In this document: positions 1,870-42,450 of the stretch, in pieces
Numbering within the stretch: position 1 is the first letter of the stretch
Layout of the letters: each line of letters begins with the position of its first letter
Origin: Candidatus Thiodiazotropha sp.
GTDB taxonomy: Bacteria > Pseudomonadota > Gammaproteobacteria > Chromatiales > Chromatiaceae
Length of the DNA: 64,000 bases
Assembly (NCBI GenBank): GCA_050291245.1
Contig: JBNKJP010000067.1
Location: 31,636 to 95,635, forward strand
Direction: 5' to 3'
Position numbers and translations under genes: made by a program
Notes under the pieces: generated by a model
The model's database searches: none
The model's input: only the letters and a program-made list of their open reading frames with translations
What the model was told of the DNA's origin: nothing

Positions 1870-4551
1870 ATGAAAAGAATAAGTGGAATATTGGTAGGAA
1901 GCATCACCCTTCTCCTGATGGGATGTGGAGAAAGTTCCACGACCACGGAGAGTAACCATCCACCCACTATCGAAGGATCACCAGACACAAGCATCGTCGT
2001 CAACGAAAACTACCGTTTTATCCCTACGGCCCAGGACGAGGATGGGGACAATCTTAGTTTCAGTATTTTCAACAAACCCACTTGGTGCAGTTTCGATACA
2101 ACGACCGGGCAGCTATCCGGAAATCCTGGTTCCAGTGATATAGGAAACTATCCGGGTATTGTCATATCCGTCAGTGACGGAATCGCGGATACTTCCCTGC
2201 CCGCTTTCAACCTGAACGTATCAGAACAGCCCGACAGTGGTGCAAACCATCCACCAATCATTAGTGGCTCACCCGTCACGCAGATCGTTGTGCACGAAAG
2301 TTATCTTTTTACGCCCATTGCCTCGGTCGCGGATGGGGATACACTCTATTTTTAAATCGAAAACAGACCATCCTGGATCCAATTTGATGAAACAACCGGG
2401 CGGCTCTCCGGAGTTCCGGATAGCAGCGACCTGGGTCGCTACCCGAATATTTTAATCTCCGTCAACGACGGCAGCTCAAGCAGTGCACTACCGGCTTTCA
2501 GTCTTACAGTTGCCGAGAATAACGTAAATTCCCCGCCGGCCATCAGCGGTACACCTGCTACCAGCGTCACAGTTGACGACAGCTATACCTTCACACCTGT
2601 CGCAAATGATGCGAATAACGACACCCTGACCTTCAGTATTGCAAATACCCCTCCCTGGTGCCGTTTTAATACCACAACCGGTACGCTTGCAGGAGTTCCA
2701 GGGTTCGATGATATCGGCGAGTACTCAAATATCACAATTTCCGTCAGTGACGGCATAGACAGTGTCGCGTTACCTGCCTTCTCGATTACTGTACAATCAG
2801 AACCCACCGCCAGTTCAGACAGCCCTCCTCTGCTCAATTTCAGTGATTTGATCAGCGGACCGGACACAGGTATTGGTGACGCCTCGGGCAGTGGCGTGAT
2901 TGTGACCGTATGGGGTCAATTCCTCGGGGCATCCCAGGGAACATCGAGCATCGAGTATTGCGATAGCACAGCCACCTGTCGTGCCGGTCATGTCTATTAC
3001 TGGAAGCACGCCGATGGCGTCCTGCCGGGCGGTCCCGCCAACCTGTATGCATCCCACCGTATGCAAGAGATCGCATTTTCGATACCCGATTCAGCCAGTG
3101 GCGCAGGCATGATCAAGGTAACGGTTGGAAGCGACAGCACAACGCTGCCGTTTACCGTACGCCCAGGCAATATCTATCATGTCAAATCAAGCGGTAATGA
3201 CACGACAGGGGATGGATCCTTCGGCAATCCGTGGGCCAGCGTCGGTAACGCTCTGAATCAAATAGAGAGCCCAGGCAGTACACTGTATGTTCACGACAGC
3301 CTGGTCTCCGACAGTAACCCACATCGGGCTGTTTACTGGAACAAAACAGCGGCTTCCAGCGGATTGAGTAACCAATTCAGCATCGTTGCCTATCCGGGCT
3401 CACATCCAAAGGCAGTGGGATATTCCGGATTTCGTAACTACACCACGGAAGGTCAGGTTGTCTCGAAGTATGAAGTCTATGCCTCCGAGTGCGACGAGGA
3501 TAGCCAGGGTCAACCGACCAACTGCGCGGCAACCCCATCACTGAATTTGACTTATGGCATCCAGACGTCAGCCTATGGCCGTGCCGTGGGAAATGCCATT
3601 ACTGACAGGCCCGGGGGTTGCGCCGACGGACAACAAGGCGCCATCAGTGGCAATGCACTCAACGGCAGAGACCGGGTCTCCGGTTATCAGATCCTGGGCA
3701 ATGAGGTGTATGAGTATGGTTGCACCGGATCCACCAAATTTCACCACACAACCTATCTCTCCATACGCAGTGGAAACGACAACTTACAAATCGATCCCTG
3801 GCGATTCGGTTGGAACTATCTGCATGACAACCACACCAAAAACGGCATTCATCAATATGACGAGAACAACAGCGGGACACTGTGCGGCAGTCCTAAGGGT
3901 ACGGTTATCATCAATGACAATGTCATCATCAATCAAAGTGGCGCCGGCATCAATATCGGCGCAAACTGTCCCTGGTCCAATGACTTTCAGGTCTACAACA
4001 ATGTCCTTGTGAATTTCGGCCTGGCGTTTGACTGGGACGGTATCGATCCCAATACGACCAATGGTCCAAACACCTCGGGCATCTCGGTCCAGGACGGTGG
4101 GCTCATGGGCACAGTTGAGATCTATAACAATACCATCCATACCTGGAATGATGACGATTTGGCAAACGATACTCAGGCCTGCCTGGGAGTTCAGGGTAAA
4201 GGTGACAATGTCAGTATCGTTTGGAATAACAATGTTTGTTACACCAACAAAGACAAACCGTTTTTTGCCGCGGGATGTTGTGGCGCCGATGTGCAGCTCG
4301 ATAATGCCAGCGGTGGGAATAATCTGTGGTACTACAGCGGGAGCTCACCTGCGAATGCCATACCTCCCGGCTGGGATACAAACGGCAGCACCGAGAACCC
4401 CCTGCTTTCAGTCGTCGCTTCCATCCTGACAATCGACGAGGGATCTCCGCTTATTGGAGGGGATACCTCCCAACGTTTGTCGAATGATATTTATGGCGTA
4501 TCGAGATCCACGGATTCCGCGATCGGCGCAGTACAATACAGACCCGAATAG
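1870..4551 (+). pseudogene. Large lipoprotein (3 putative-Ig/cadherin-like repeats, IPT-like domain, right-handed beta-helix) interrupted by an in-frame TAA at 2353-2355
   Basis: Lipobox MKRISGILVGSITLLLMG-C. Track ORFs 1828..2355 and 2848..4551 share one frame, which continues cleanly after the TAA (IENRPSWIQFDETTGRLSG) and completes repeats 2 and 3. About 893 aa if intact. Could be a sequencing error. Confidence 0.8.
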
Positions 4552-4658: not shown

Positions 4659-4673
4659 TGAAGAACTTCCAAT

Positions 4674-4704
4674 AAAAAACCCGGCAGATGATCTGCCGGG
4701 TTTT
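4674..4704. terminator. Bidirectional rho-independent terminator
   Basis: AAAAAACCCGGCAGAT-G-ATCTGCCGGGTTTT, a perfect stem with A and T tails between convergent genes. Confidence 0.85.
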
Positions 4705-4731
4705 GATTGGTTAAGCTGGTGATCGGCGCGA

Positions 4732-5709
4732 TCAGTTCAGCTTGGCCGGGTTCTCGGTTTCACCACCCAGCAGGCTGTACTCAACCAGAGAACCGTCATA
4801 GAGCTTGGTGTTCTTGTTGCCGACGATCTCGGAGCTGACGAACCATACACCGGAGGCCAGATGTCCGGTGTTACAATAGGCGATCGTTGCCGCTTCCGGG
4901 TTCAGACCCTTTGCCTTCATCATGGATTTATAACTCTCGGCAGGCAGAAAGCGCGCCGAGGCGCCATCGGCGGTCGTCAGCAGATCAGGTGACATGTCCT
5001 TTGCGCCTTTGAGGTGACCGGAGAGTTCACCCTTTTTGGTAAAGACACCCATGTACTGGTTTTGCGGGCGGGCATCGGCCAGTTGTGCCTTCTTGTCCTT
5101 GAGGGCCTGTTTCACCTCGGCATAGGTCGCCATCACGCTCGCATCCTCTTTGGTAGCCGTCCAATCACCGGGCTGACCGGCCGGTGCATCGGTGGCTGCG
5201 GGATTACCCTCCGCCAACCACTCCGCCATGCCGCCGTTCAGAACCGCCATGTTGGCGTGGCCGTAGTATTTGAACTGCCAGTAGAGTCGGGCCGCCTGGT
5301 CCACGTCAGCCGTGTCGAGACCGGCCGGGACGAATACAATCGCGGAATCCTTGTTGACGCCCCAGGACTGAGCCAGTTTTTCGAAATCGGCCTTCAGGGG
5401 GATCAGTTTCTTGACCTTTTTACCCTGGACATCGCGAGATACCCGAACCTTCTTGAAATCGACAAAATGGGCGCCCGGAATATGACCGGACACGCTTTTC
5501 ACCACAATCTTGCCTTCTTTTTTGGCAACTTCCGGGGCTTTCGTGAAGGCCTCAAGGGGGCCACTGACCTGAAGGATGGTGACCTCACTCTGATGTGCCT
5601 TGAGCCATGCGGCATCGACCACCGGAGATTTGATCTCGATAGCCTGGGCGCCCTGAAAGACGCTGGCACCAAGCACCACCAGGCTGGCCATAATGCTGTT
5701 TATCTTCAT
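4732..5709 (-). CDS. Secreted (periplasmic) two-domain rhodanese/sulfurtransferase, SseA-like
   Basis: Sec signal MKINSIMASLVVLGASVFQGAQA; GHIPGA; LNGGMAEW; DARP; catalytic loop YCNTGHLAS; LYDGS; RBS AAGGAG. Confidence 0.9.
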   Translation of the reverse strand: MKINSIMASLVVLGASVFQGAQAIEIKSPVVDAAWLKAHQSEVTILQVSGPLEAFTKAPEVAKKEGKIVVKSVSGHIPGAHFVDFKKVRVSRDVQGKKVKKLIPLKADFEKLAQSWGVNKDSAIVFVPAGLDTADVDQAARLYWQFKYYGHANMAVLNGGMAEWLAEGNPAATDAPAGQPGDWTATKEDASVMATYAEVKQALKDKKAQLADARPQNQYMGVFTKKGELSGHLKGAKDMSPDLLTTADGASARFLPAESYKSMMKAKGLNPEAATIAYCNTGHLASGVWFVSSEIVGNKNTKLYDGSLVEYSLLGGETENPAKLN

Positions 5710-5790
5710 ACTTAACTACTCCTTAAGACAAGTTACGTGTTGTAAAAAAACCGGCAAAAACTTCATTTGCAGGGATAGACCTGAATGTAC

Positions 5791-6492
5791 TCAGGACAAA
5801 AATCTTCGTTTTGCCTCGTTCTGAACCGACAAAAGCAGCGGTGGCAAATCCAGGGGCAGTTCACTCAGCACATGGATGTCCCGATTCGCCAGTATGGGAT
5901 TGGAATCGGCCTGCATCGCCCCGGCGGAGGCAATCTTCCCGTCACGTTGCCGTAACAGGGTTTCGGCGTGGGGGCGTAGCAGTGTCACCATGGCATTCAA
6001 CCATTGCGCAACCAGCCAAGAGGGGCGCGCGCGATTGATCTCCCATTGTTCGTCAAGACGCTGCAGTATCTGATGGGCCGGTTGTATCTTCTCGTCGGTT
6101 ACCCAGCCATTGGTGGCAAACACACCGATCGGAAACCCTTGGGTATTCATGGAGAGTGCCATAATGTGAGTAAACTCACCCTCAGCCTGGGGGCGGAAAA
6201 AGAGGTGGAAATGGCCATGCTCATTTCGCTCCCAGTCTTCCGGGTCGTGGGTATGGTAATAGTACATGGCGCCCGTGTGAGCATCGCGGCAATCGTCTTG
6301 CGGGTAGTGAACCCAGGCCCGGGTGGGTCCTTCACCCTGGTCACGCAGCAATTCCCCTAGCAACGAGAGATGCTCACTGGAGAGCGCCTGTTGGATAGTC
6401 AACAACGTCTCAGCGGCCTCGGCCACCCGATCGAATTGAGGTTCGTTCAGGGTGTTGAGCCAGTCGGCGTAGTCGATTATCTCAGTCGGCAT
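5791..6492 (-). CDS. Uncharacterised His-motif protein (DUF6969-like), 233 aa
   Basis: Likely start MPTEIIDY at 6492, 13 nt after the repeat-peptide stop; the track extension to 6747 is a shadow frame of the repeat gene. Motifs YYYHTH and EHGHFHLF. The DUF name is recalled, not searched. Confidence 0.75.
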   Translation of the reverse strand: MPTEIIDYADWLNTLNEPQFDRVAEAAETLLTIQQALSSEHLSLLGELLRDQGEGPTRAWVHYPQDDCRDAHTGAMYYYHTHDPEDWERNEHGHFHLFFRPQAEGEFTHIMALSMNTQGFPIGVFATNGWVTDEKIQPAHQILQRLDEQWEINRARPSWLVAQWLNAMVTLLRPHAETLLRQRDGKIASAGAMQADSNPILANRDIHVLSELPLDLPPLLLSVQNEAKRRFLS

Positions 6493-6505
6493 GCAATACG
6501 CACGA

Positions 6506-6859
6506 TCAGTTTCGGGCGGGTGCGCAGGGGTTCTCTCCCCGGCTTGCCGGTGCGCAGGGATTTTCACCCCGAGATACCGGTGCGCAGGGATTCTCCCCGC
6601 GAGCCGGTGCACAGGGATTTCCTCCACGAGCGGCCGGTGCACAGGGATTTTCTCCCCGAGCGGCCGGTGCGCAGGGATTTTCACCGCGGGTAGGCGCACA
6701 AGGATTTTCGCCCCGGGCCAAGGCACTGGGAACAACCACTGAGGCAATGGGTTCCGGCAAGGGCGCGACGCCCAGCATACTGGCCGTCAGGGCGGTGACG
6801 GAGAGCGTCATAAGACGGCGATGTCTGCGAATGCGATGTGAGTCTGTAGGATGCTTCAT
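6506..6859 (-). CDS. Secreted Cys-containing tandem-repeat peptide (7 x RG[E/G]NPCAP)
   Basis: A 48-aa leader (Arg-rich N-region, hydrophobic stretch, ALA cleavage-like site) is followed by 7 repeats. The DNA repeats differ mainly at third codon positions in this frame, which indicates selection on this peptide. Confidence 0.85.
   Translation of the reverse strand: MKHPTDSHRIRRHRRLMTLSVTALTASMLGVAPLPEPIASVVVPSALARGENPCAPTRGENPCAPAARGENPCAPAARGGNPCAPARGENPCAPVSRGENPCAPASRGENPCAPARN
6509..6715 (-). repeat. Coding tandem repeat, 7 units of 27-30 nt
   Basis: Seven tgc[g/a]ca[g/a]gg[a/g]tt-type units on the + strand encode GENPCAP on the - strand. Confidence 0.9.
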
Positions 6860-6918
6860 GGTTTCACGTTTATTTCATTCTGTCTGTTGCGAGTCAAATT
6901 CGGGCGTCGGGACGAGCG

Positions 6919-7482
6919 TCATTCCACATCTTCATGCATTGACCTGTGCCTGGGGCTCAGAAGGAAAATCACGGCGGCCAACAGTCCCATGGCAGCAACG
7001 ATAATCCAGGGTGAGACGCCAAACAGTACCGGCAGTGTCTTCTCGTTCATCTCACCGGAGTGCAGAAGCCTCTGCATCCACGCACTATCATATTCGTAGG
7101 AAAAACCCCAGATTCCCAGCACCATGCCCAGAGCAAAGACAATGCCGTCGATGCGCCCCGACATGGCGCCTACCACTGAAGTCCCCGGGCAGTAACCGCC
7201 GATTGCCATACCGAGACCGATGAGCACCCCCCCGGCTACCGCAGCACCCAGAACGGTACGGGGTATATAGAATCCCTGAGAGTCAAAGGTGTTGTCGAGC
7301 TGGAGCCAAAGAATACCCGCCGCTGCCACCACGATGGCGGTAAACATCACCTTGAGAACGGACCAGTCCGTGAGATGAAACTGTGCCGTGAGTTTCTTGG
7401 GTGAGGCAAAACCGGCCTGTTCCAAGACATATCCGAAGAGCATACCCGAAGCGAGTGCTGTACCGGCCGAACCATAGTCCAT
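6919..7482 (-). CDS. YeeE/YedE thiosulfate/sulfur-compound transporter family protein (second half of a split pair)
   Basis: Multi-TM protein with GMAIGGYCPGT motif. Its ATG overlaps the upstream stop (TAATG at 7484-7480). Confidence 0.85.
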   Translation of the reverse strand: MDYGSAGTALASGMLFGYVLEQAGFASPKKLTAQFHLTDWSVLKVMFTAIVVAAAGILWLQLDNTFDSQGFYIPRTVLGAAVAGGVLIGLGMAIGGYCPGTSVVGAMSGRIDGIVFALGMVLGIWGFSYEYDSAWMQRLLHSGEMNEKTLPVLFGVSPWIIVAAMGLLAAVIFLLSPRHRSMHEDVE

Positions 7483-7997
7483 TACCAAACCCTCCGCAGC
7501 ATCAGGCTCATCAGCAGACCGCTGATAAAGAATGCGAGCAGGAAGGAGAAGCCGCCGATGCTCAACATAGCGCCTCCCGACAGTCCCAGCCCACTGGTGC
7601 AGCCGGCGGCGATTCGGGAACCAAAACCCGCAAGTACGCCGCCGATCAGTGCAAGAAAAACCCTTGAGGGGGCACGGATCTTACCCGTGCCATCCATTTG
7701 CAGACGAAACCGACCGGCATTGAGGGCAGCCAGCAGAGCACCGATGGCGATACCGATGACCTCAACTACAATCCAGGATGCCAGGGGATTGGCCCCCTTT
7801 GCCACCATTCCGCCAAGATAGGCATTGTGAGCGGTTGCCTCCGGCGCGAGACTCATGCCCAGGTAGGCGGCGATGCGTGCAAACACCCCCGATGCGCCGA
7901 CACCGTTACCGACCAGCACAAAGGTGAGGATGACAACCAGGCCCAACACGATGCCTGCGATATAGGGGGGCCAATAGGGACGGATAGGACCTGCCAC
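7482..7997 (-). CDS. YeeE/YedE family protein (first half of a split pair)
   Basis: GFGSRIAAGCTSGLG motif and TM helices. GTG start at 7997 has an AGGAG RBS. Confidence 0.85.
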   Translation of the reverse strand: MAGPIRPYWPPYIAGIVLGLVVILTFVLVGNGVGASGVFARIAAYLGMSLAPEATAHNAYLGGMVAKGANPLASWIVVEVIGIAIGALLAALNAGRFRLQMDGTGKIRAPSRVFLALIGGVLAGFGSRIAAGCTSGLGLSGGAMLSIGGFSFLLAFFISGLLMSLMLRRVW

Positions 7998-8139
7998 AGT
8001 ATTGCTCCTGACTGTATGGACAGACACAACGAACCGCCATAACAAGATTTGAGTTTCGACTTGTTTGAGAATGGTACTAAGGGATTTCCCTAGACAGAAG
8101 CGCTGGCCTTACTGGGAACCGCATCTTCTGTTGTTATTG

Positions 8140-8186
8140 GGAATTGTGTCACAAATTCCATTCTCAACAATGTGGATTCTATCACA
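8140..8186. promoter_or_regulatory. Operator-like palindrome plus CRP-like site upstream of the yeeE operon
   Basis: GGAATTGTGTCACAAATTCC (8140-8159; core TTGTG-T-CACAA) and TGTGG-ATTCTA-TCACA (8171-8186). Confidence 0.35.
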
Positions 8187-8215
8187 TCCACCTTGCCTGT
8201 AACTCCGTTAGCGAT

Positions 8216-8992
8216 TCAGTCATCCGTTTTCTGCGCGGCCAGGATCAGGCGCCCCAGGAATTCGCTCACCAGTTCCGATGCCGGCACACCCTGCTTCCCT
8301 TGTCTAAGATCGGCTTTCTGATCAAACAGCAGGTTCATCGGGAGAATCCCCCTTACCCGACCTTGATGTTGATAGCACATGTCGTAGACGACCTTCGAGA
8401 CCTGGACCGGCAAAGCCACGTGCCGTGTTGTCTTGGGACTGGGCACGCTACAGTGGCGAGGATCCGAAACCACTAGAAATTCCCGACAGCTGATGGGCCG
8501 CTCCGGATGAATACTGCAGGACTGCTCGTCCAGAAAGGGACAGGGCAGATTCAGTTTGAAATAGCCCAGACCGGCCCTACGCAGCTCAGTACGGTCATTT
8601 TCCGTCAAGGCATATTCCAGAACCTCGCTCAGCCCACTGTCGCGAAATTGCTTTAGGTTATGCTCGAAACGCGCCCGGACGATCCGTTGACGCACTTCGG
8701 GCATACGATCGACCAGCGCCAACAGGGCAAAGCCTTCGGCGCGGCTGATCGGCACCAGCTGCGAACAGCAGGCGTCACAGCCGTTGCGACAGGATATCCG
8801 CTCCCCTGCCGCCTCGGTGATCCGTGCCGTCACCGAAATCACCTTGTTGGTGATATCCTGAAAGAGCGGTAACAGATCGTGTATCTGCACCGGTTCCTCG
8901 GAAATATCGGCGGAAAACCGCATGATTTCATCACCCAGTGGCACCTGGGCCTCTACCCGCTTGGTGCCGGGAAGGTTGTTTTGTTCACTCAA
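8216..8992 (-). CDS. YkgJ family cysteine-cluster protein (putative Fe-S/Zn binding)
   Basis: CRNGCDACC ... CPFLDEQSCSIHPERPISCR pattern. Confidence 0.85.
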   Translation of the reverse strand: MSEQNNLPGTKRVEAQVPLGDEIMRFSADISEEPVQIHDLLPLFQDITNKVISVTARITEAAGERISCRNGCDACCSQLVPISRAEGFALLALVDRMPEVRQRIVRARFEHNLKQFRDSGLSEVLEYALTENDRTELRRAGLGYFKLNLPCPFLDEQSCSIHPERPISCREFLVVSDPRHCSVPSPKTTRHVALPVQVSKVVYDMCYQHQGRVRGILPMNLLFDQKADLRQGKQGVPASELVSEFLGRLILAAQKTDD

Positions 8993-9059
8993 TGTTCAGT
9001 ACCCGGTGCTATGATCCACCAATGGATCGGGATGACGGCTGACATAATACTCAAATACC

Positions 9060-9581
9060 ATGGTAAACAACGACCTGTTGATCAAATTACACGATTCGCT
9101 TCGGCTCAACCCGGCAATGTCACCGCTTGACGATGCCGGCATCGCACTGCGTAAACCGATCGGCCCGGACCGTTCACTGCTGATTGCCTGGGCGGAGTCC
9201 CACTTTCCCAGCCTGTGGGTGGATGAAATTCAACGCGCCATAAGCAACCAGCCGGTCTCCTGCTGGCTGGCGCAACAAGCCGGCAATTTGTTGGGCTTTG
9301 CCTGTTATGACGCCACGGCCCTGGGATTCTTCGGCCCCCTGGGAGTGATCGAATCCGCCAGAGGCACGGGCATCGGCAGCGCCTTGAGCCGCGCCTGTTT
9401 TCACGAGATGTATCTCAAGGGATACCGATACGCCATCATTGGGCGAACCCATGCCGAGGGGTTCTACCGCCGCATTGCCCCCGTCGTGGTAATACCCGAT
9501 TCGGATCCGGGCTGCTATGCCGAGACCCTGATGCTCAAGGCGGGATCGTCAAGGCCGCCCCGGACTGACGGCACTGACTGA
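9060..9581 (+). CDS. GNAT family N-acetyltransferase
   Basis: Acetyl-CoA motif FGPLGVIESARGTGIGSAL, plus AIIG and GFY. Confidence 0.85.
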   Translation: MVNNDLLIKLHDSLRLNPAMSPLDDAGIALRKPIGPDRSLLIAWAESHFPSLWVDEIQRAISNQPVSCWLAQQAGNLLGFACYDATALGFFGPLGVIESARGTGIGSALSRACFHEMYLKGYRYAIIGRTHAEGFYRRIAPVVVIPDSDPGCYAETLMLKAGSSRPPRTDGTD

Positions 9582-10167
9582 TCTGCTGTTCCCAGGCCTG
9601 CTGCCGGGCCCTGTTGCGACCGTGGTCGGTCTGTTCCGCTGAATCGTAACTGGCGGACAGGGTATCGGCACGCTGATCGTGTTCATCCATGACCCGGCGA
9701 ACATCCAGGATCAATTGGCGTCGCCGGGTATTTCTCAAGCCCCGGATCTCCGCGACCATGTCTCGATAGCACAGCCCCCCAATATCGTAGTGTCCCTGCT
9801 CATGCGCCAGGAGTTCATCGGTACGCGCCGAACCCACCACCCAGGTGGCGTTCCCGTTGATCACCGTATTGAAGTCCATTTCACCCAAACGGTACTCGCC
9901 ATCCTCCTGGATATAGGCCAGCCGCCCGGGTCGCATTTCTACGGCGATCTGGGCATCCTCCGATTCGCCCGCAGGCCGGGAGGATATCTCAGGAAAATCG
10001 TCCCAGGTCAGGGCCCTCGGCCAACCCGTCAGACGGGGACCAGGTGATGCCGCCGGTGCTCCGACACCTTCCGGTTGTGCGGAACGGAAACCGGCATGGG
10101 GGTTATCCGGTTGCGGCCCGGGTGCGGTGGGTATGTTCCTCCGAGCGGGTGAACTGCTCTCACACAT
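9535..10167 (-). CDS. DUF922-like putative Zn-dependent protease
   Basis: LTWDDF and LLAHEQGHYDI (HExxH) motifs; AGAGGA RBS; Pro-rich N-terminus; no signal peptide. Confidence 0.7.
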   Translation of the reverse strand: MCESSSPARRNIPTAPGPQPDNPHAGFRSAQPEGVGAPAASPGPRLTGWPRALTWDDFPEISSRPAGESEDAQIAVEMRPGRLAYIQEDGEYRLGEMDFNTVINGNATWVVGSARTDELLAHEQGHYDIGGLCYRDMVAEIRGLRNTRRRQLILDVRRVMDEHDQRADTLSASYDSAEQTDHGRNRARQQAWEQQISQCRQSGAALTIPP

Positions 10168-12325: not shown

Positions 12326-14512
12326 TTAGTTCTGTAGTATCTTCTTGCCTTTGATGATGACATCCTTGCTCGCCTTCATATTGACCTTACCCGAACCCTT
12401 CACTGTGATGTTCTTGCCTTCGAGGATGATGGTACCGTCCTTTTTCATAGTGATCGAGGCCTTGCCAGTCTTGATCACGACCGCGTCACCGGCTTCGATG
12501 GAGAGGGTCTTGCCCACCGTGACGTTAAGGTCATCGCCCACCGCCAGATTATCGCTTTTACCCACCGATACGGAGCGGGCGTCTCCCACGGTGCAAGCAC
12601 TGCTCTTGCCGATGGTCACCGACTCGCTGCCGCCAACCTGAGCGGCGCGGGAGGCACCCACGGTTTCATTCATACCGGCACCGACACTGACCTGGTAGCC
12701 GGCGCCAATGCTCAGGGCCTTGGCCGCGCCGATGGTTTCCGTCTTGTTGATCCCCACGGTTTCGCTTTTGTTACTGCCGATATTGACGCTACGGTTGCTG
12801 CCGATCGAGACACTCTCATTGACACCGACGGTCTCGGTGCGATCGACGCCGATGGTGATGGTCTCGTTATTGCCCACCTCTTCGGTTCGATCGTGACCGA
12901 TGGTGATGGTCTCGTCATTACCCACGCTTTCCGTGCGGTTGACCCCGACCTGGGTGGTTTCATTGTTCTCCACCAAATTATCCTGATTCTTCTCCGCGTG
13001 GATATAGACTTGCTCCTCGCCTTTTTTGTCCTCAAAGCGGATCTCATTGAAGTTCTCCCCGGATCCGCCCTTGCTGCTGCGGCTCTTGATGCCGCTCTGG
13101 GTCATGTTCGCGGGCAATCCGTAGGGCGGCATCTGATCCGCGTTATAGACCCGGCCGGTGATGATCGGACGATCCGGATCCCCTTCCAGGAACTCCACGA
13201 TCACCTCCTGGCCGATACGTGGAATATGCATCGCCCCCCAGTTCTTGCCGGCCCAGACCTGCGCCACCCGGACCCAGCAGGAACTGTTCTCGTCACGAGT
13301 GCCGTAGCGATCCCAGTGAAACTGCAGCTTCACCCGGCCATATTCATCGGTATAAATCTCCTCCCCTGACTTGCCGACCACCACCGCGGTCTGGGGACCC
13401 TGCACCATGGGTTTTGGAGTCGTCCGGGCACTGCGGTATTTTTCCTTGCTGTCGGTACAGCGAAATTCGCAGGTGAATACCGGCGCTTCTGCAATCTCGG
13501 GCACCGATTCGAAGGCGTCGGAATGCAGAAAACAGGTGGTGGCGGTAATCAGATATTCCCGATTCTGATCGCCACGGGGGTGCTCGATGAGGTTGAACAG
13601 CCCCCCGGCGCAGAGTCCCCGGGCATTTGCTTCGCCCTCGAGCACCTCATAGCCGCCCTGAATCTCTTCGATGCGCTGGCGTGCATAGGAATCCCCGTCT
13701 CCGGTCGCTTCATACTCACCGGGATAGTCATAGATCTCATAGTCGGAATGACTGTAGGGACGGGGCTGAAGCGCGTTCACCAAGAGATCTGATTTCGGTT
13801 TCTTGAAATCGTAATCCGTATGCGCGTAACGGCCGGGTTGCACGCTCTTGGTGAATGACCAGCTGTGGATGTAATCCCGCCAACGAGAACTGCCCGTCTC
13901 AGTCGGCGGAACGTAGGGTACGTCACTATAAGCCTCGAGCGGTGCGTGGGAACTGTAGTCGTCACAGAGTATCAGGGTGTGTTTTCCCGGGACATGGGTA
14001 AAAAAATAGTAGATCCCTTCTTGCTCCATCAGGCGACTGACGAAGTTGAAATCCGTTTCGCGGTATTGCACACAGTATTCCCACTCACGGTAGGAACCAC
14101 TGAGTTTATCCTCGAAGTCAGTGAAGCCGTTGTCCCGAAATACCTCTTTGATGATGTCAGGGACCTTCTTGTTCTGAAAGATACGGCAGTCCGAGGTACG
14201 GGTCAGGAACCACAACCAGGGACTCAGGATGGCGCGATAATGGGCAAAGTAGGCGATATGACCGATCTGTGTAAATCGACTGACAAAACCGTTGAAATAC
14301 CGTTTGCTCCCCTCGACCATATCCACCTCTACGGTCATGGGTTTTCCCAGCAGGTCATCATGACTGATCGATTCATTGTCACTCAACAGATCCACCGTGA
14401 ACTCAAACAAACGCCCCTGTTCCTCACGTGCCTCCATACGCAGGATCAAGAGTTCATCCGCTCCCAAGGGGGTTTTGATCTGTAACTGTCGATTACTTTG
14501 TGTAAACGCCAT
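12326..14512 (-). CDS. vgrG: Type VI secretion spike protein VgrG (TssI) with gp5 C-terminal beta-repeats and no effector extension
   Basis: CVQYRETDFNFVSRLMEQEGIYYFF; PRIGQEVIVEFLEGDPDRP; HAEKN. Start MAFTQSNR at 14512 has an AGGAG RBS; 728 aa. Confidence 0.97.
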   Translation of the reverse strand: MAFTQSNRQLQIKTPLGADELLILRMEAREEQGRLFEFTVDLLSDNESISHDDLLGKPMTVEVDMVEGSKRYFNGFVSRFTQIGHIAYFAHYRAILSPWLWFLTRTSDCRIFQNKKVPDIIKEVFRDNGFTDFEDKLSGSYREWEYCVQYRETDFNFVSRLMEQEGIYYFFTHVPGKHTLILCDDYSSHAPLEAYSDVPYVPPTETGSSRWRDYIHSWSFTKSVQPGRYAHTDYDFKKPKSDLLVNALQPRPYSHSDYEIYDYPGEYEATGDGDSYARQRIEEIQGGYEVLEGEANARGLCAGGLFNLIEHPRGDQNREYLITATTCFLHSDAFESVPEIAEAPVFTCEFRCTDSKEKYRSARTTPKPMVQGPQTAVVVGKSGEEIYTDEYGRVKLQFHWDRYGTRDENSSCWVRVAQVWAGKNWGAMHIPRIGQEVIVEFLEGDPDRPIITGRVYNADQMPPYGLPANMTQSGIKSRSSKGGSGENFNEIRFEDKKGEEQVYIHAEKNQDNLVENNETTQVGVNRTESVGNDETITIGHDRTEEVGNNETITIGVDRTETVGVNESVSIGSNRSVNIGSNKSETVGINKTETIGAAKALSIGAGYQVSVGAGMNETVGASRAAQVGGSESVTIGKSSACTVGDARSVSVGKSDNLAVGDDLNVTVGKTLSIEAGDAVVIKTGKASITMKKDGTIILEGKNITVKGSGKVNMKASKDVIIKGKKILQN

Positions 14513-14752
14513 GCAATGCTCCTGCCCGATTTTGCTAAGCATAGCAAACAAATAAAGCCATGACAGTGCGCTATGGGATCGATCATTTCCGCTTGAATCC
14601 GCCATCCGAGGAGCCACATGCCGACTAATGTGCGGTTTACACCTTGTAAGTCCCGCGAAATCGTCAAACAATAGGACAAACCCTGGCATGCCTATGCATT
14701 CGGGTTTGAAGGGATGGGGTTCAGACGAACAACCTTATAGGAGTCTATTGAC

Positions 14753-16147
14753 GTGGCGGAACGCATGACCATGACGTTCGACCTGGGAAAGCCGGGCCAG
14801 AGCGTCTCAGCCTCAGGACAGAAACCCCACGTCATCGTGATCATAGGTGATTTTCAGGGTAACGGTTTTCCTGAAAAGCCCCGCAATGTGGGTAAGCCAA
14901 GGCAAGTGGAGATTGAAACCCTGGATGCTCTGATGGCGAAACTGAAACCCTCGATACCCTGTCCCTGGTCAACGGATACCGCCTCTCCCGTACTGAGTTT
15001 CGAGCGGCTCGAACAGTTCCATCCGGACCATCTCATTAACGAACTGCCATCCCCGGACAGTTGGCCGGTACATACTGGGACGACGCCTGAAACGCCGCCG
15101 CAAACGGCGTCTCAATCCAATCCCGCAATTACAGAGGAATCTGATCAGCAGACCCTTTCAAGACTGCTGGGAAATCAACCCCTGGGAGTGTCATCACCCT
15201 CTGGAGGCACATCGGGAAAGACCCGTAGGCAACAAACCCTGATTGACTCAGTGGTGCAAAAACTGACCGAGCGGGCATCAACCGACAGCGTATCAGAGCG
15301 GCACAATACCCCGACCGAATCCACTCCCCAGATTGCGGGTTCCGCTTTGCGTGGCTTGCTGCATGAGCCTGCGTTTCAACAACTCGAGTCACGCTGGCGC
15401 AGTCTCGATTGGTTGCTGCGCAACAACCCCTTCGAAACGGACTGCCCGGTCTATCTGCTCGATTTTCCGCCACTCACGACTGACAACACCTTATTAAACG
15501 ATGATCAATGCAGCAAAGCGCTTGATGCATTGCAGCAACAGCTTGTCCACCTTAATTCATCAGAAAACCAATTGATTCTGATTTTCGACGAATGGTTTAA
15601 ACCGGTGCCACAAGACATCCTCCTTCTCGAACAGTTGGCGCGGATCGCGCAACACCTGAGTGCACTTATGATCACAGCCGCGGATGTCTCGTTTACAAAC
15701 ATTGAGGCAGATACGCAAACCGGACACTCCTGGGCTGCATTTCGGCAACAGGACAAGGCGGGATATATCATGCTGAGTCTTCCAGGGTTGCTATTACGCC
15801 TGCCCTATGGACGTCGCTATGACCCGATCGAGCACGCTGAATTTGAAGAGTGGACCGGACCTGAGAGTCGAGCAAATCTGTTATGGGGCAGCCCCGCCTA
15901 TGCGTTGTCCCTGATTCTGCTGTGCGAACGAATGGAAGACCGGACTTTTCAAGAACGACGCATCGACGATTGGCCCTCCTTCGCCTATCAACAAGACGAC
16001 GAGACGTTGTTACAACCCGCAACGGAGTCACTCTACTCGGAACAGGACCTGCAGCAACTGCTTTCAATAGGACTGGTGCCCGGACTGGGCAGTCGTCGTC
16101 AGAACAGTGTGCAGTTCCCCTGGTTGCAAACGCTCAAGGGCAATTGA
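14753..16147 (+). CDS. Non-canonical TssB/TssC chimeric sheath-like protein
   Basis: The N-terminus aligns by eye to this window's TssB (VIVIIGDFQG; LSFERLEQFHPD). The remainder aligns to TssC (LLHEPAFQQLESRWRSL; LRLPYGRRYDPIE; LLWGSPAYAL) but lacks the TssC C-terminal domain. Confidence 0.75.
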   Translation: MAERMTMTFDLGKPGQSVSASGQKPHVIVIIGDFQGNGFPEKPRNVGKPRQVEIETLDALMAKLKPSIPCPWSTDTASPVLSFERLEQFHPDHLINELPSPDSWPVHTGTTPETPPQTASQSNPAITEESDQQTLSRLLGNQPLGVSSPSGGTSGKTRRQQTLIDSVVQKLTERASTDSVSERHNTPTESTPQIAGSALRGLLHEPAFQQLESRWRSLDWLLRNNPFETDCPVYLLDFPPLTTDNTLLNDDQCSKALDALQQQLVHLNSSENQLILIFDEWFKPVPQDILLLEQLARIAQHLSALMITAADVSFTNIEADTQTGHSWAAFRQQDKAGYIMLSLPGLLLRLPYGRRYDPIEHAEFEEWTGPESRANLLWGSPAYALSLILLCERMEDRTFQERRIDDWPSFAYQQDDETLLQPATESLYSEQDLQQLLSIGLVPGLGSRRQNSVQFPWLQTLKGN

Positions 16148-41706: not shown

Positions 41707-42450
41707 TTGTGCCCAATGCTTGAGACGCTTTCAACAAATGCTCTGATTATGGCAGGCGGAATCATTGGATCCGCATACATCATCAGGGGTATCGCCGGTT
41801 TCGGTTCAGGTCTGATCGCGATACCCCTGCTCGCCCTGATCATGCCCTTGAGCACCGCGGTGCCGCTGATCGTGCTGCTGGATTATATTGCCTCGGCCAG
41901 TCAGGGCCTGTCTAATCGAAAGGCCATCCAATGGAAGGATCTTCTGCCCCTTCTCCCCTTCTCCCTGCTGGGAGTGTGTCTGGCACTGTTCCTGTTTCAA
42001 TCGTTGGAGATGCAGCTGCTGATACACGGACTTGGCATTTTTCTGTTGCTGTTCGCGATCTACTCTCTGCTCGCGTTTACCCCAAAATTCCGACCCTCTG
42101 TCCTGTGGGCCATCCCCGGCGGTATACTGGGCGGGATGATCGGCACCCTGTTCGGCACTGGCGGTCCCTTTTATGTGATCTACCTGAAACTGCTTGGGCT
42201 GCAGAAAAACTCATTTCGGGCAACTTTCGCAACGATCTTCCTGATCGATGGATTCGGGCGCATTTCAGGATACCTGATAACGGGTTATATCGATCTCAAT
42301 CAGACGCTGTTAACGGCCTTAGCCCTTCCTGTGATGGCGATCGGTATGTATCTCGGAGGACAGATCCACACCACTCTCTCACAACAGGTGTTTCAGCGTG
42401 GAATCAGCATTCTGTTGATCTTCAGCAGTCTGTCACTGTTATGTAAATAA
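41707..42450 (+). CDS. Sulfite exporter TauE/SafE family membrane protein
   Basis: GIAGFGSGLIA and GTLFGTGGP motifs; about 8 TM helices. Confidence 0.85.
   Translation: MCPMLETLSTNALIMAGGIIGSAYIIRGIAGFGSGLIAIPLLALIMPLSTAVPLIVLLDYIASASQGLSNRKAIQWKDLLPLLPFSLLGVCLALFLFQSLEMQLLIHGLGIFLLLFAIYSLLAFTPKFRPSVLWAIPGGILGGMIGTLFGTGGPFYVIYLKLLGLQKNSFRATFATIFLIDGFGRISGYLITGYIDLNQTLLTALALPVMAIGMYLGGQIHTTLSQQVFQRGISILLIFSSLSLLCK

Follow-up and report, generated by a model that had tools for sequence, protein, structure and literature searches.

The subject of this analysis is a 64,000-nucleotide stretch of DNA from Candidatus Thiodiazotropha sp. (Chromatiaceae; GenBank assembly GCA_050291245.1, contig JBNKJP010000067.1, positions 31,636 to 95,635), hereafter the window, and within it a short gene for a putatively exported peptide made up of seven RG(E/G)NPCAP repeats. 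This NPCAP peptide gene is real, conserved and previously undescribed. It lies in a cassette with genes for the two halves of a split YeeE/YedE transporter, a DUF6969 protein and a periplasmic rhodanese, and the peptide may be a disordered, multi-cysteine carrier of sulfane sulfur in the periplasm that works with the rhodanese and feeds the transporter, a reading to which we give a probability of roughly 0.45.

The 117-codon open reading frame starts with ATG and translates as MKHPTDSHRIRRHRRLMTLSVTALTASMLGVAPLPEPIASVVVPSALA followed by seven RG(E/G)NPCAP units, ending ...ARN. A first-pass annotation of the window had described a 48-residue leader ending in ALA and a 69-residue repeat part with seven such units, and both were confirmed by translation and reproduced in an independently assembled contig of public run X1 (2106 nucleotides, depth 51), which spans 6200-7100 with zero differences and zero gaps; the repeat array is therefore not an assembly artefact. 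In order, the mature part reads RGENPCAP T, RGENPCAP AA, RGENPCAP AA, RGGNPCAP A, RGENPCAP VS, RGENPCAP AS and RGENPCAP ARN, so that the seven NPCAP cores are spaced 9 or 10 residues apart, and Tandem Repeats Finder places the array at 6515-6716, with 6 copies at a period of 30 (score 186) and a score of 240 at a period of 87. The same annotation had noticed that variation in the DNA is mostly synonymous, and the counts agree: pairwise comparison of the seven 24-nucleotide cores gives 80 synonymous against 6 nonsynonymous codon differences, and third codon positions hold 82 of the 88 nucleotide differences while synonymous sites make up only ~6.3 of 24 (about a quarter), for a ratio of nonsynonymous to synonymous change per site (pN/pS) of ~0.03. 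Because the differences between cores are nearly all synonymous or at third positions, the peptide frame is under strong purifying selection, and none of the other five reading frames of the array encodes a conserved peptide. The mature part contains no Met, no His and no CxxC, its Cys residues being isolated, and it is predicted to be intrinsically disordered: in an AlphaFold2 model its confidence score (pLDDT, predicted local distance difference test) is ~50 with no secondary structure, the sole predicted helix covering residues 6-28. No Pfam or NCBIfam model matches the peptide at E<=0.01. Contigs of runs X1, X2 and X5 match the window at 6510-6695 in the repeat part only, at depths of up to ~500x compared with 8-50x for the window organism, and since these repeat-only contigs are far deeper, more abundant members of the same communities appear to carry related NPCAP arrays.

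The leader shows the pattern of a signal peptide, a call made by heuristics only, from its basic n-region, its hydrophobic segment and the conserved AxA that stands ahead of the first repeat. In 18 of 19 RG-type members this AxA is followed at once by the Arg that opens the repeat array, a placement that supports cleavage by signal peptidase at this point, and it is on such features that we infer export of the peptide and cleavage at AxA. Across 24 leaders the length is 45-50 residues and the maximal 12-residue hydropathy 1.6-2.5; RR-x-hydrophobic-hydrophobic is found in 14 of them, others having RK, KRK or QR, and distant members have no such motif. The RR motif in many leaders, their length, their moderate hydrophobicity and the Arg that follows the predicted cleavage site are features resembling those of the twin-arginine translocation (Tat) pathway, but NPC repeats borne on c-type cytochromes and lipoproteins, described below, must travel by Sec, and the peptide may take either route.

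A word-indexed search of 5.8 billion proteins recovered only 16 clusters of relatives, which share a common plan of a 40-50 residue leader followed by 4-7 NPCAP units. Close relatives follow RG(E/G/A/D)NPCAPxx with a period of 10 residues, and the distant relatives P0014-P0016 keep NPCAP between Lys-rich linkers. Periods of 9 and 10 residues are mixed in the window and in loci L088 and L008 (L numbers denote loci), most members having only 10. Across 17 aligned sequences N-P-C is invariant at every core common to all, and the complete NPCAP is retained except in three single cores; the linkers, the repeat number (4 to 11) and the leader vary. The family consensus after the core is CAPxxR, three of the seven window units read CAPxR, and distant members are without any Arg. 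The regularly placed Arg residues, proposed in the first-pass annotation as protease sites, are hence not a feature of the family, the distant members having Lys-rich or neutral linkers.

Repeat number changes quickly while the unit stays constant, with 7, 10 and 11 repeats in close relatives. The closest relative, L088, has a DUF6969 that is 91% identical, in a cluster whose members are labelled Candidatus Thiodiazotropha sp., and its peptide reading frame (4664-5110), with 10 repeats, was passed over in gene calling; in Guyparkeria hydrothermalis a 156-residue version with 11 RGGNPCAPSA repeats was called (L209 4493-4963). In the source annotation of the window DUF6969 is called at 283 residues (P0017; 5791-6747 (-)), and in L088 at 274 residues (5001-5825), in each case with a false N-terminal extension over the peptide reading frame. 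Gene callers miss the peptide because a second frame stays open across the repeat, into which they over-extend the gene downstream, and protein-database counts of the family are consequently too low.

The order of the cassette, on one strand, is Sulf_transp, Sulf_transp, peptide, DUF6969 and rhodanese, and it is identical in every full-length relative examined (~17), with no other arrangement found among them. The loci were reached both through the peptide (L001, L002-4, L005, L006) and through DUF6969 (L008, L009, L011, L032, L069, L088 and L209, with L010 cut at the contig end). They span several families of Gamma- and Betaproteobacteria, and since the flanking genes vary between genera the five genes form a conserved unit. 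Random loss of the Cys and unrelated neighbourhoods, which the first-pass annotation had named as grounds for giving up its proposal, are not what was found: N-P-C is invariant at the shared cores of 17 sequences, and the same five-gene cassette recurs in all full-length loci examined. The distance from the peptide stop to the DUF6969 start is 13 nucleotides in the window and 13-22 nucleotides in four of the five cassettes measured, L001 having 83. The hosts are sulfur oxidisers, namely Candidatus Thiodiazotropha, Thiohalomonadaceae, Halothiobacillaceae/Guyparkeria and a metagenome-assembled genome of Noviherbaspirillum, in which the cassette is preceded by an ArsR-family regulator and lies between RuBisCO and sox genes. 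This regulator has Cys at 40/41 and 95/99, and its score against the BigR model is below the cut-off. The cassette contains no protease, exporter or recognisable recognition element of peptides synthesised ribosomally and modified post-translationally (RiPPs), no persulfide dioxygenase (PDO) and no SoxZ gene, and no metal efflux, chaperone or MerR/CueR-type genes are among its recurrent neighbours.

Other genes adjoin the cassette in some lineages. In Guyparkeria and a related metagenome-assembled genome, a SoxH-related gene of the metallo-beta-lactamase (MBL) fold lies directly 5' of it on the same strand (L001 5544-6569, L209 2092-3117), with FUR and methyltransferase genes farther upstream; this MBL-fold neighbour was considered as a persulfide dioxygenase and rejected, being SoxH-related. 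Upstream of the cassette in the window (8216-10167) and in L088 (1461-3304) are genes for a CxxCxxCC (YkgJ-type) protein, a GNAT acetyltransferase and a DUF922 protein, which other genera do not have; they probably represent lineage synteny and stand outside the system.

Among the partners of the peptide, each transporter half has one Cys motif, GCTSG or GGYCPGT, that does not vary in any of 17 orthologs. For the YedE and rhodanese families NCBIfam gives weak matches to the selenium-linked YedE/FdhT and ExtH, far below curated cut-offs. Split halves of this kind align with the two halves of YeeE, and a heterodimer has been proposed (PMC11582611). The genes yedE1 and yedE2 usually occur in yedE1-yedE2-pdo operons, and CpYedE1E2 has been found by experiment to import zero-valent sulfur, with one conserved Cys per half being essential (PMC10812762). 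The cassette rhodanese aligns with bovine thiosulfate sulfurtransferase, catalytic Cys included, and a signal peptide and a YCN[TS]G[HN] loop are present in 10 of 10 cassette orthologs. DUF6969 sits where yedE1-yedE2-pdo operons carry the persulfide dioxygenase. It has no signal peptide, and its alignment displays an invariant YYHxH...EHGHFHxF...H cluster; in an AlphaFold2 model of pLDDT 92.5 six invariant His and one Glu lie on adjacent beta strands of one sheet. Foldseek against the PDB found no structural relative below E=0.49, with template-modelling (TM) scores below 0.3, and a profile search of PDB sequences found none at E<=1. DUF6969 is probably a cytoplasmic metalloprotein whose modelled fold is not a recognised one.

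Beyond the cassette, DUF6969 was scanned for with one genome per species, and 80 loci were kept of at least 587 matches; the domain occurs in at least 587 species, all Pseudomonadota. In 42 of the 80 loci the gene immediately 5' of DUF6969, in the same orientation, is a reading frame with at least three NPC motifs; in 14 further loci such a frame lies no more than 3 kb away. These carriers are of several kinds. The first are small secreted NPCAAK-repeat peptides. In the second, N-terminal NPCA(A/P) repeats are fused to a BLH/DUF442 (TIGR01244-type) sulfurtransferase domain, as a lipoprotein or a secreted protein, and in Thioclava, some Marinobacter and relatives these fusions lie between the split YeeE pair and DUF6969. 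The third have cytochrome c domains of SoxA/TsdA type with NPCAAK repeats on both sides, sometimes with a full-length YeeE nearby; 23 of 36 NPC-cytochromes carry an EMVQxCM Cys that may be a distal haem ligand, PDB alignments covering the CxxCH region only.

The other 24 of the 80 loci, mostly from Alphaproteobacteria, have no NPC repeats and instead carry a secreted FGE/SUMF1-like protein upstream. Alphaproteobacterial examples are L019, L036, L044, L076 (5034-5906 and 7371-8561), L080, L082-L084 and L087; their FGE/SUMF1/PvdO-like protein carries GGSWDDxGCGVCRPAARHSRP, and an SpbR-family protein is nearby in ~11 loci. These FGE-like neighbours prompted the idea that the NPC peptide is itself an FGE/sulfatase-type substrate (CxPxR), which was dropped, the motif not being conserved in the family.

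Metagenome contigs were scanned for back-translated NPCAAKNPCAAKNPCA, with at least 120 stretches matching, and loci with at least 900 nucleotides downstream were judged. Among the matches listed, DUF6969 is present in 22 of 51 such roomy loci, and others have NPC repeats that are borne by different periplasmic redox proteins or lie next to YeeE halves. One of the metagenome loci (L110 1028-2368) has two YeeE/YedE halves and then an NPCAAK peptide with no DUF6969 after it, so the pairing of transporter and peptide can exist without DUF6969. A profile search of 1.84 billion representatives gave at least 66 genuine NPC-repeat clusters, of which 47 are short signal-plus-repeat peptides; long matches (P0128-P0130 and others) were eukaryotic low-complexity repeats such as RGETPVS and were discarded. 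NPCAAK-type peptides have no Pfam or NCBIfam match, and the searchable literature contains no mention of DUF6969 and nothing relevant for NPCAAK, GENPCAP or related strings. A large NPC-repeat family, undescribed so far, has NPCAP as one of its branches.

Table 1. Features of the NPCAP cassette in the window, with NPC-repeat fusion proteins of other loci
Feature	Position	Strand	Basis
NPCAP-repeat peptide gene, 117 residues	6506..6859	(-)	translation; tandem repeat; frame-specific purifying selection; 16 homologous clusters and unannotated copies in genome loci
Leader, residues 1-48	6716..6859	(-)	basic n-region RIRRHRRL, moderately hydrophobic segment, conserved APLPEP, second short hydrophobic segment, AxA (ALA); family alignment
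Predicted mature peptide, residues 49-117	6509..6715	(-)	7 x RG(E/G)NPCAP, 1-2 residue linkers, 7 Cys; predicted disordered
Half-size YeeE/YedE subunit, C-terminal half of Sulf_transp, PmpA/YedE-type, invariant GCTSG Cys	7482..8045	(-)	Pfam PF04143 2.2e-22, profile 172-308
Second half-size YeeE/YedE subunit, N-terminal-half type, PmpB/YedE-type, invariant GGYCPGT Cys	6919..7488	(-)	Pfam PF04143 1.5e-18, profile 9-157; DUF6691
DUF6969 protein, 233 residues from ATG 6492	5791..6492	(-)	Pfam PF22308 4.1e-56
Periplasmic two-domain rhodanese, 325 residues, signal peptide, catalytic Cys279 (IAYCNTGHLASG)	4732..5709	(-)	Pfam Rhodanese; bovine rhodanese alignment
Promoter-like site 5' of first transporter gene, weak evidence	8176..8203	(-)	consensus scan, 9/12 matches with TG extension; not above shuffle expectation
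NPCA(A/P)-BLH/DUF442 fusions	L015 5116-5865, L028 5204-5983; also L016, L018, L035, L043, L063, L081		
Single-haem SoxA/TsdA-type NPCAAK cytochromes, up to 16-19 NPC motifs, directly 5' of DUF6969	L012-L014, L020, L025-L027, L030, L046 (e.g. L046 5025-5903)		

Elsewhere in the window, downstream of the cassette and on the opposite strand, are an autotransporter beta-domain (159-1685), a He_PIG Ig-domain (1828-2355) and a 567-residue Gly/Asn/Ser-rich protein (2848-4551) with no Pfam or NCBIfam match. A large type VI secretion cluster occupies 10565-37146 (HEAT-repeat protein, DUF6484, ImpA, ImpE, TssG, TagF, PP2C phosphatase), with VgrG at 12326-14689 and a sheath-like VipA/VipB fusion at 14753-16147. 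A TauE/SafE-type sulfite exporter gene at 41707-42450, ~34 kb from the cassette, fits a sulfur-oxidising host.

The reading of the peptide as a sulfur carrier is drawn from the fixed order of the cassette, which recurs in every full-length locus examined, from the nature of its partners, sulfur proteins whose active sites are intact (the rhodanese Cys and the transporter Cys), and from the recurrence of NPC repeats with three unrelated periplasmic sulfur enzymes: rhodanese as a separate protein, and the BLH/DUF442 sulfurtransferase and the SoxA/TsdA cytochrome as fused domains. Characterised relatives of rhodanese, the DUF442-type sulfurtransferase and the SoxA/TsdA cytochrome act on a carrier thiol or persulfide, and NPC repeats are also neighbours of YeeE-family transporters, in which sulfur moves by way of Cys relays. 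The only conserved content of the mature peptide is a Cys in a small-residue, turn-prone N-P-C-A-P context on a flexible chain, and a carrier of the swinging-arm kind is suggested because N-P-C is invariant, the linkers, repeat number and leader vary, and the mature part is predicted to be disordered. First-pass annotation had further envisaged release of single units from the array; the same repeats form N- and C-terminal tails on SoxA/TsdA-type cytochrome c and DUF442-type sulfurtransferase, and because they tail folded periplasmic enzymes in this way we favour a tethered arm over a released natural product.

In the relay that we infer, which covers sulfur loading, the direction of flow, the role of DUF6969 and every chemical step, the five cassette genes would be co-transcribed and the peptide would reside in the periplasm, free or tethered to the membrane, its seven spaced thiols serving as carrier arms. 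Sulfane sulfur would be held on the Cys residues as persulfide, polysulfide or thiosulfonate adducts, loaded or unloaded by the periplasmic rhodanese, and the peptide would thereby keep reactive zero-valent sulfur soluble and protein-bound and present it to the split YeeE/YedE transporter. The transporter would pass the sulfur across the membrane by way of its two conserved Cys, and the cytoplasmic, His-rich DUF6969 would receive or convert it. Symbionts of the Thiodiazotropha type store sulfur in the periplasm and oxidise it in the cytoplasm by the Dsr system (PMC11237559), and a relay from periplasm to cytoplasm would have an obvious use for this reason.

A number of points weigh against a sulfur carrier. 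The peptide has no homology to the known carriers SoxY, Sud and TusA, and the role given to DUF6969 is a guess, because it is based on gene position only. Free thiols in the oxidising periplasm would be substrates of DsbA, and some of the distant NPC variants carry CxxC or many Met/His residues, a sign of metal binding in parts of the wider family. Public sequencing runs matching the window are DNA only, with no RNA run matched for the peptide gene. DUF6969 also occurs without NPC repeats, beside the FGE-like proteins, and NPCAAK proteins have no nearby DUF6969 in 29 of the 51 roomy metagenome loci among the matches listed; since each occurs without the other, NPC repeats and DUF6969 are not an obligate pair. 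The adjacency that does exist, with NPC repeats directly upstream in 42 of 80 loci, would also fit the modification of a substrate by its enzyme.

This last point leads to the alternative that DUF6969 takes the NPC repeats as its substrates. DUF6969 would then be a His-rich metalloenzyme with a new fold, acting in the cytoplasm on the Cys (or on the N-P-C-A unit) ahead of export, and the repeats would form a new class of ribosomal, modified peptides and tails, by a logic analogous to that of the MNIO-modified oxazolins and bufferins with unrelated enzymology. We regard this reading as unlikely, although it draws on the same gene adjacency seen from both sides, in the DUF6969-selected loci (42 of 80 with an NPC reading frame directly upstream on the same strand, 14 more within 3 kb) and in the repeat-selected metagenome loci (22 of 51 roomy ones with DUF6969, among the matches listed), as well as on the 13-22 nucleotide spacer in four of five cassettes measured (83 in L001). 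An invariant cluster of six His and a Glu is what would be expected of a metal centre, here in a protein of no known fold; the strict N-P-C-A flank resembles an enzyme recognition motif, the leader is conserved beyond the needs of export (the APLPEP motif), and there is a precedent for signal-bearing Cys-repeat precursors being modified ahead of Sec export (PMC12452194). The association is, however, non-obligate in both directions, large folded enzymes, c-type cytochromes among them, bear the repeats, a setting unusual for RiPP cores, and the cassette is without protease, exporter or recognisable RiPP recognition element. The repeat itself is the only element common to all carriers, and the sequence suggests no chemistry that could be proposed for the modification.

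It is distinctly unlikely that the peptide instead binds or buffers soft metals or metalloids in the periplasm, as a secreted metallothionein would, its targets being Cu(I), Hg(II), Cd, As(III) or selenium in the form of selenotrisulfide. A disordered, secreted peptide with many thiols would suit such a function, as would the analogy with the copper-binding oxazolins, and distant members of the family are Met/His-rich beside the Cys (MNPCHAK, HHEMNPCNPCAMKH) or contain CxxC motifs such as CNPC and CGAC. The RGENPCAP subfamily, however, has no Met, His or CxxC, and its isolated Cys are 9-10 residues apart. By inspection of sequence, some NPCAAK loci that lack DUF6969 have cupredoxin-like or MerA/DedA-like genes, and also genes for extracytoplasmic function (ECF) sigma and anti-sigma factors, whereas the recurrent cassette neighbours include no metal efflux, chaperone or MerR/CueR-type genes and the conserved partners are all sulfur-transfer proteins. 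The YedE and rhodanese families do have selenium-linked members, but the matches to them here (YedE/FdhT, ExtH) are weak and far below curated cut-offs.

A sacrificial or structural thiol polymer, which would buffer the periplasm against reactive sulfur species or reactive oxygen species, or anchor or coat its sulfur deposits, with no specific hand-over to the transporter, is improbable: the hosts make zero-valent sulfur, related arrays are present at high depth in the same communities and repeat number changes fast between close relatives (7, 10, 11), as in structural or low-specificity repeat proteins, but the synteny of five genes, strictly kept and including a transporter and a sulfurtransferase, speaks for a role in a pathway, N-P-C-A is conserved more strictly than a generic thiol buffer needs, and to our knowledge sulfur-globule proteins are Gly/Tyr-rich and Cys-free.

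The sulfur carrier and its alternatives are not strictly exclusive. There is also a real, if minor, chance that NPC repeats and DUF6969 constitute a new biochemical system, in which either DUF6969, as a multi-histidine metalloenzyme of new fold, would install a novel Cys modification before export, giving a second, MNIO-independent route to modified secreted Cys-repeat peptides, or the relay of peptide, YedE1E2 and DUF6969 would be the missing machinery by which sulfur-storing oxidisers mobilise periplasmic zero-valent sulfur and take it into the cytoplasm. Sulfur oxidisers transfer zero-valent sulfur, insoluble or reactive, from the periplasm, where it occurs as globules or polysulfide, to the cytoplasm; the split YeeE/YedE transporters were found only recently to import it, and we know of no dedicated periplasmic donor or cytoplasmic acceptor for them. 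The cassette offers candidates for each, with the NPC-repeat peptide and rhodanese as donor and DUF6969 as acceptor, and some carriers are cultured (Guyparkeria, Thioclava, Marinobacter), making the question directly testable. Two sizeable uncharacterised families are exposed in the process, the NPC-repeat peptides and tails (at least 66 clusters and at least 120 metagenome loci) and DUF6969 (at least 587 species), and neither has a curated functional model in Pfam or NCBIfam.

Among known systems, metallothioneins are characterised by clustered CxC/CxxC and a context of metal homeostasis, and neither is seen in the peptide or its recurrent neighbours. The oxazolins, or Buf_EGKCG (HvfA-type) proteins, and the bufferins share with the peptide an export signal followed by short tandem repeats with one Cys each, a small periplasmic product, and a conserved gene directly downstream whose function is unknown or oxidative. 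They differ in that the context here is sulfur transfer rather than copper stress and that NPC repeats also decorate folded enzymes; a beta-helix has been reported for EGKCG proteins (PMC12452194), while AlphaFold2 predicts disorder for the NPCAP peptide. The motif is NPCAP, with no EGKCG, DUF2282 or BUF_6/12Cys signature in the peptide. MNIO (DUF692, PF05114), DUF2063 and DoxX are absent from 39 window reading frames scanned against Pfam, which include every one of 230-400 residues, the size expected of MNIO or DUF2063, and from the Pfam-labelled flanks of L001, L002, L005, L006, L088 and L209. First-pass annotation had seen no MNIO in the window and allowed that the chemistry might be different, and on both counts it was borne out. 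What stands of its overall interpretation is a real, signal-bearing gene of single-Cys-core repeats under purifying selection; the framing as a metal-binding RiPP precursor does not, as the partners MNIO, DUF2063 and DoxX are absent, the cassette has no protease or exporter, and the context is sulfur trafficking and not metal resistance. By motif and gene content, the peptide falls outside the MNIO/oxazolin/bufferin class.

SoxYZ offers a functional parallel, being a periplasmic carrier that is served by sulfur enzymes and keeps its sulfur adducts on a Cys set among small residues in a flexible segment, the C-terminal GGCGG swinging arm of SoxY, and NPC repeats fused to a SoxA/TsdA-type cytochrome mimic the pairing of SoxAX with SoxY in one polypeptide. 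Unlike SoxY, the NPCAP peptide has many Cys per chain in place of one and no folded body, and its partners are the rhodanese, YedE1E2 and DUF6969. It has no match to the SoxY domain (PF13501), has no SoxZ domain and ends in ...NPCAPARN, not GGCGG; the peptide is not a SoxY, and would work in the manner of the SoxY arm without being related to it. Sud of Wolinella and SbdP of Aquifex, each a folded protein of the rhodanese domain whose one active Cys holds periplasmic polysulfide sulfur, deliver that sulfur to a membrane enzyme. The proposed likeness is Cys-held sulfur in the periplasm, the holder here being a disordered repeat peptide separate from the rhodanese.

The cassette itself compares with the yedE1-yedE2-pdo and PmpAB-Blh (BigR-type) operons. 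These likewise have two adjacent half-size YeeE/YedE genes with one conserved Cys each, together with a sulfurtransferase-type gene and a cytoplasmic metal-dependent gene, and one copy of the cassette has a preceding ArsR regulator. In the cassette, by contrast, DUF6969 replaces the persulfide dioxygenase (ETHE1/PDO) by position, the rhodanese is periplasmic, and a secreted multi-Cys peptide, which has not been described for those operons, is inserted. Its gene content and order mark the cassette as a variant of the YedE1E2/PmpAB sulfur-import operons with two new parts.

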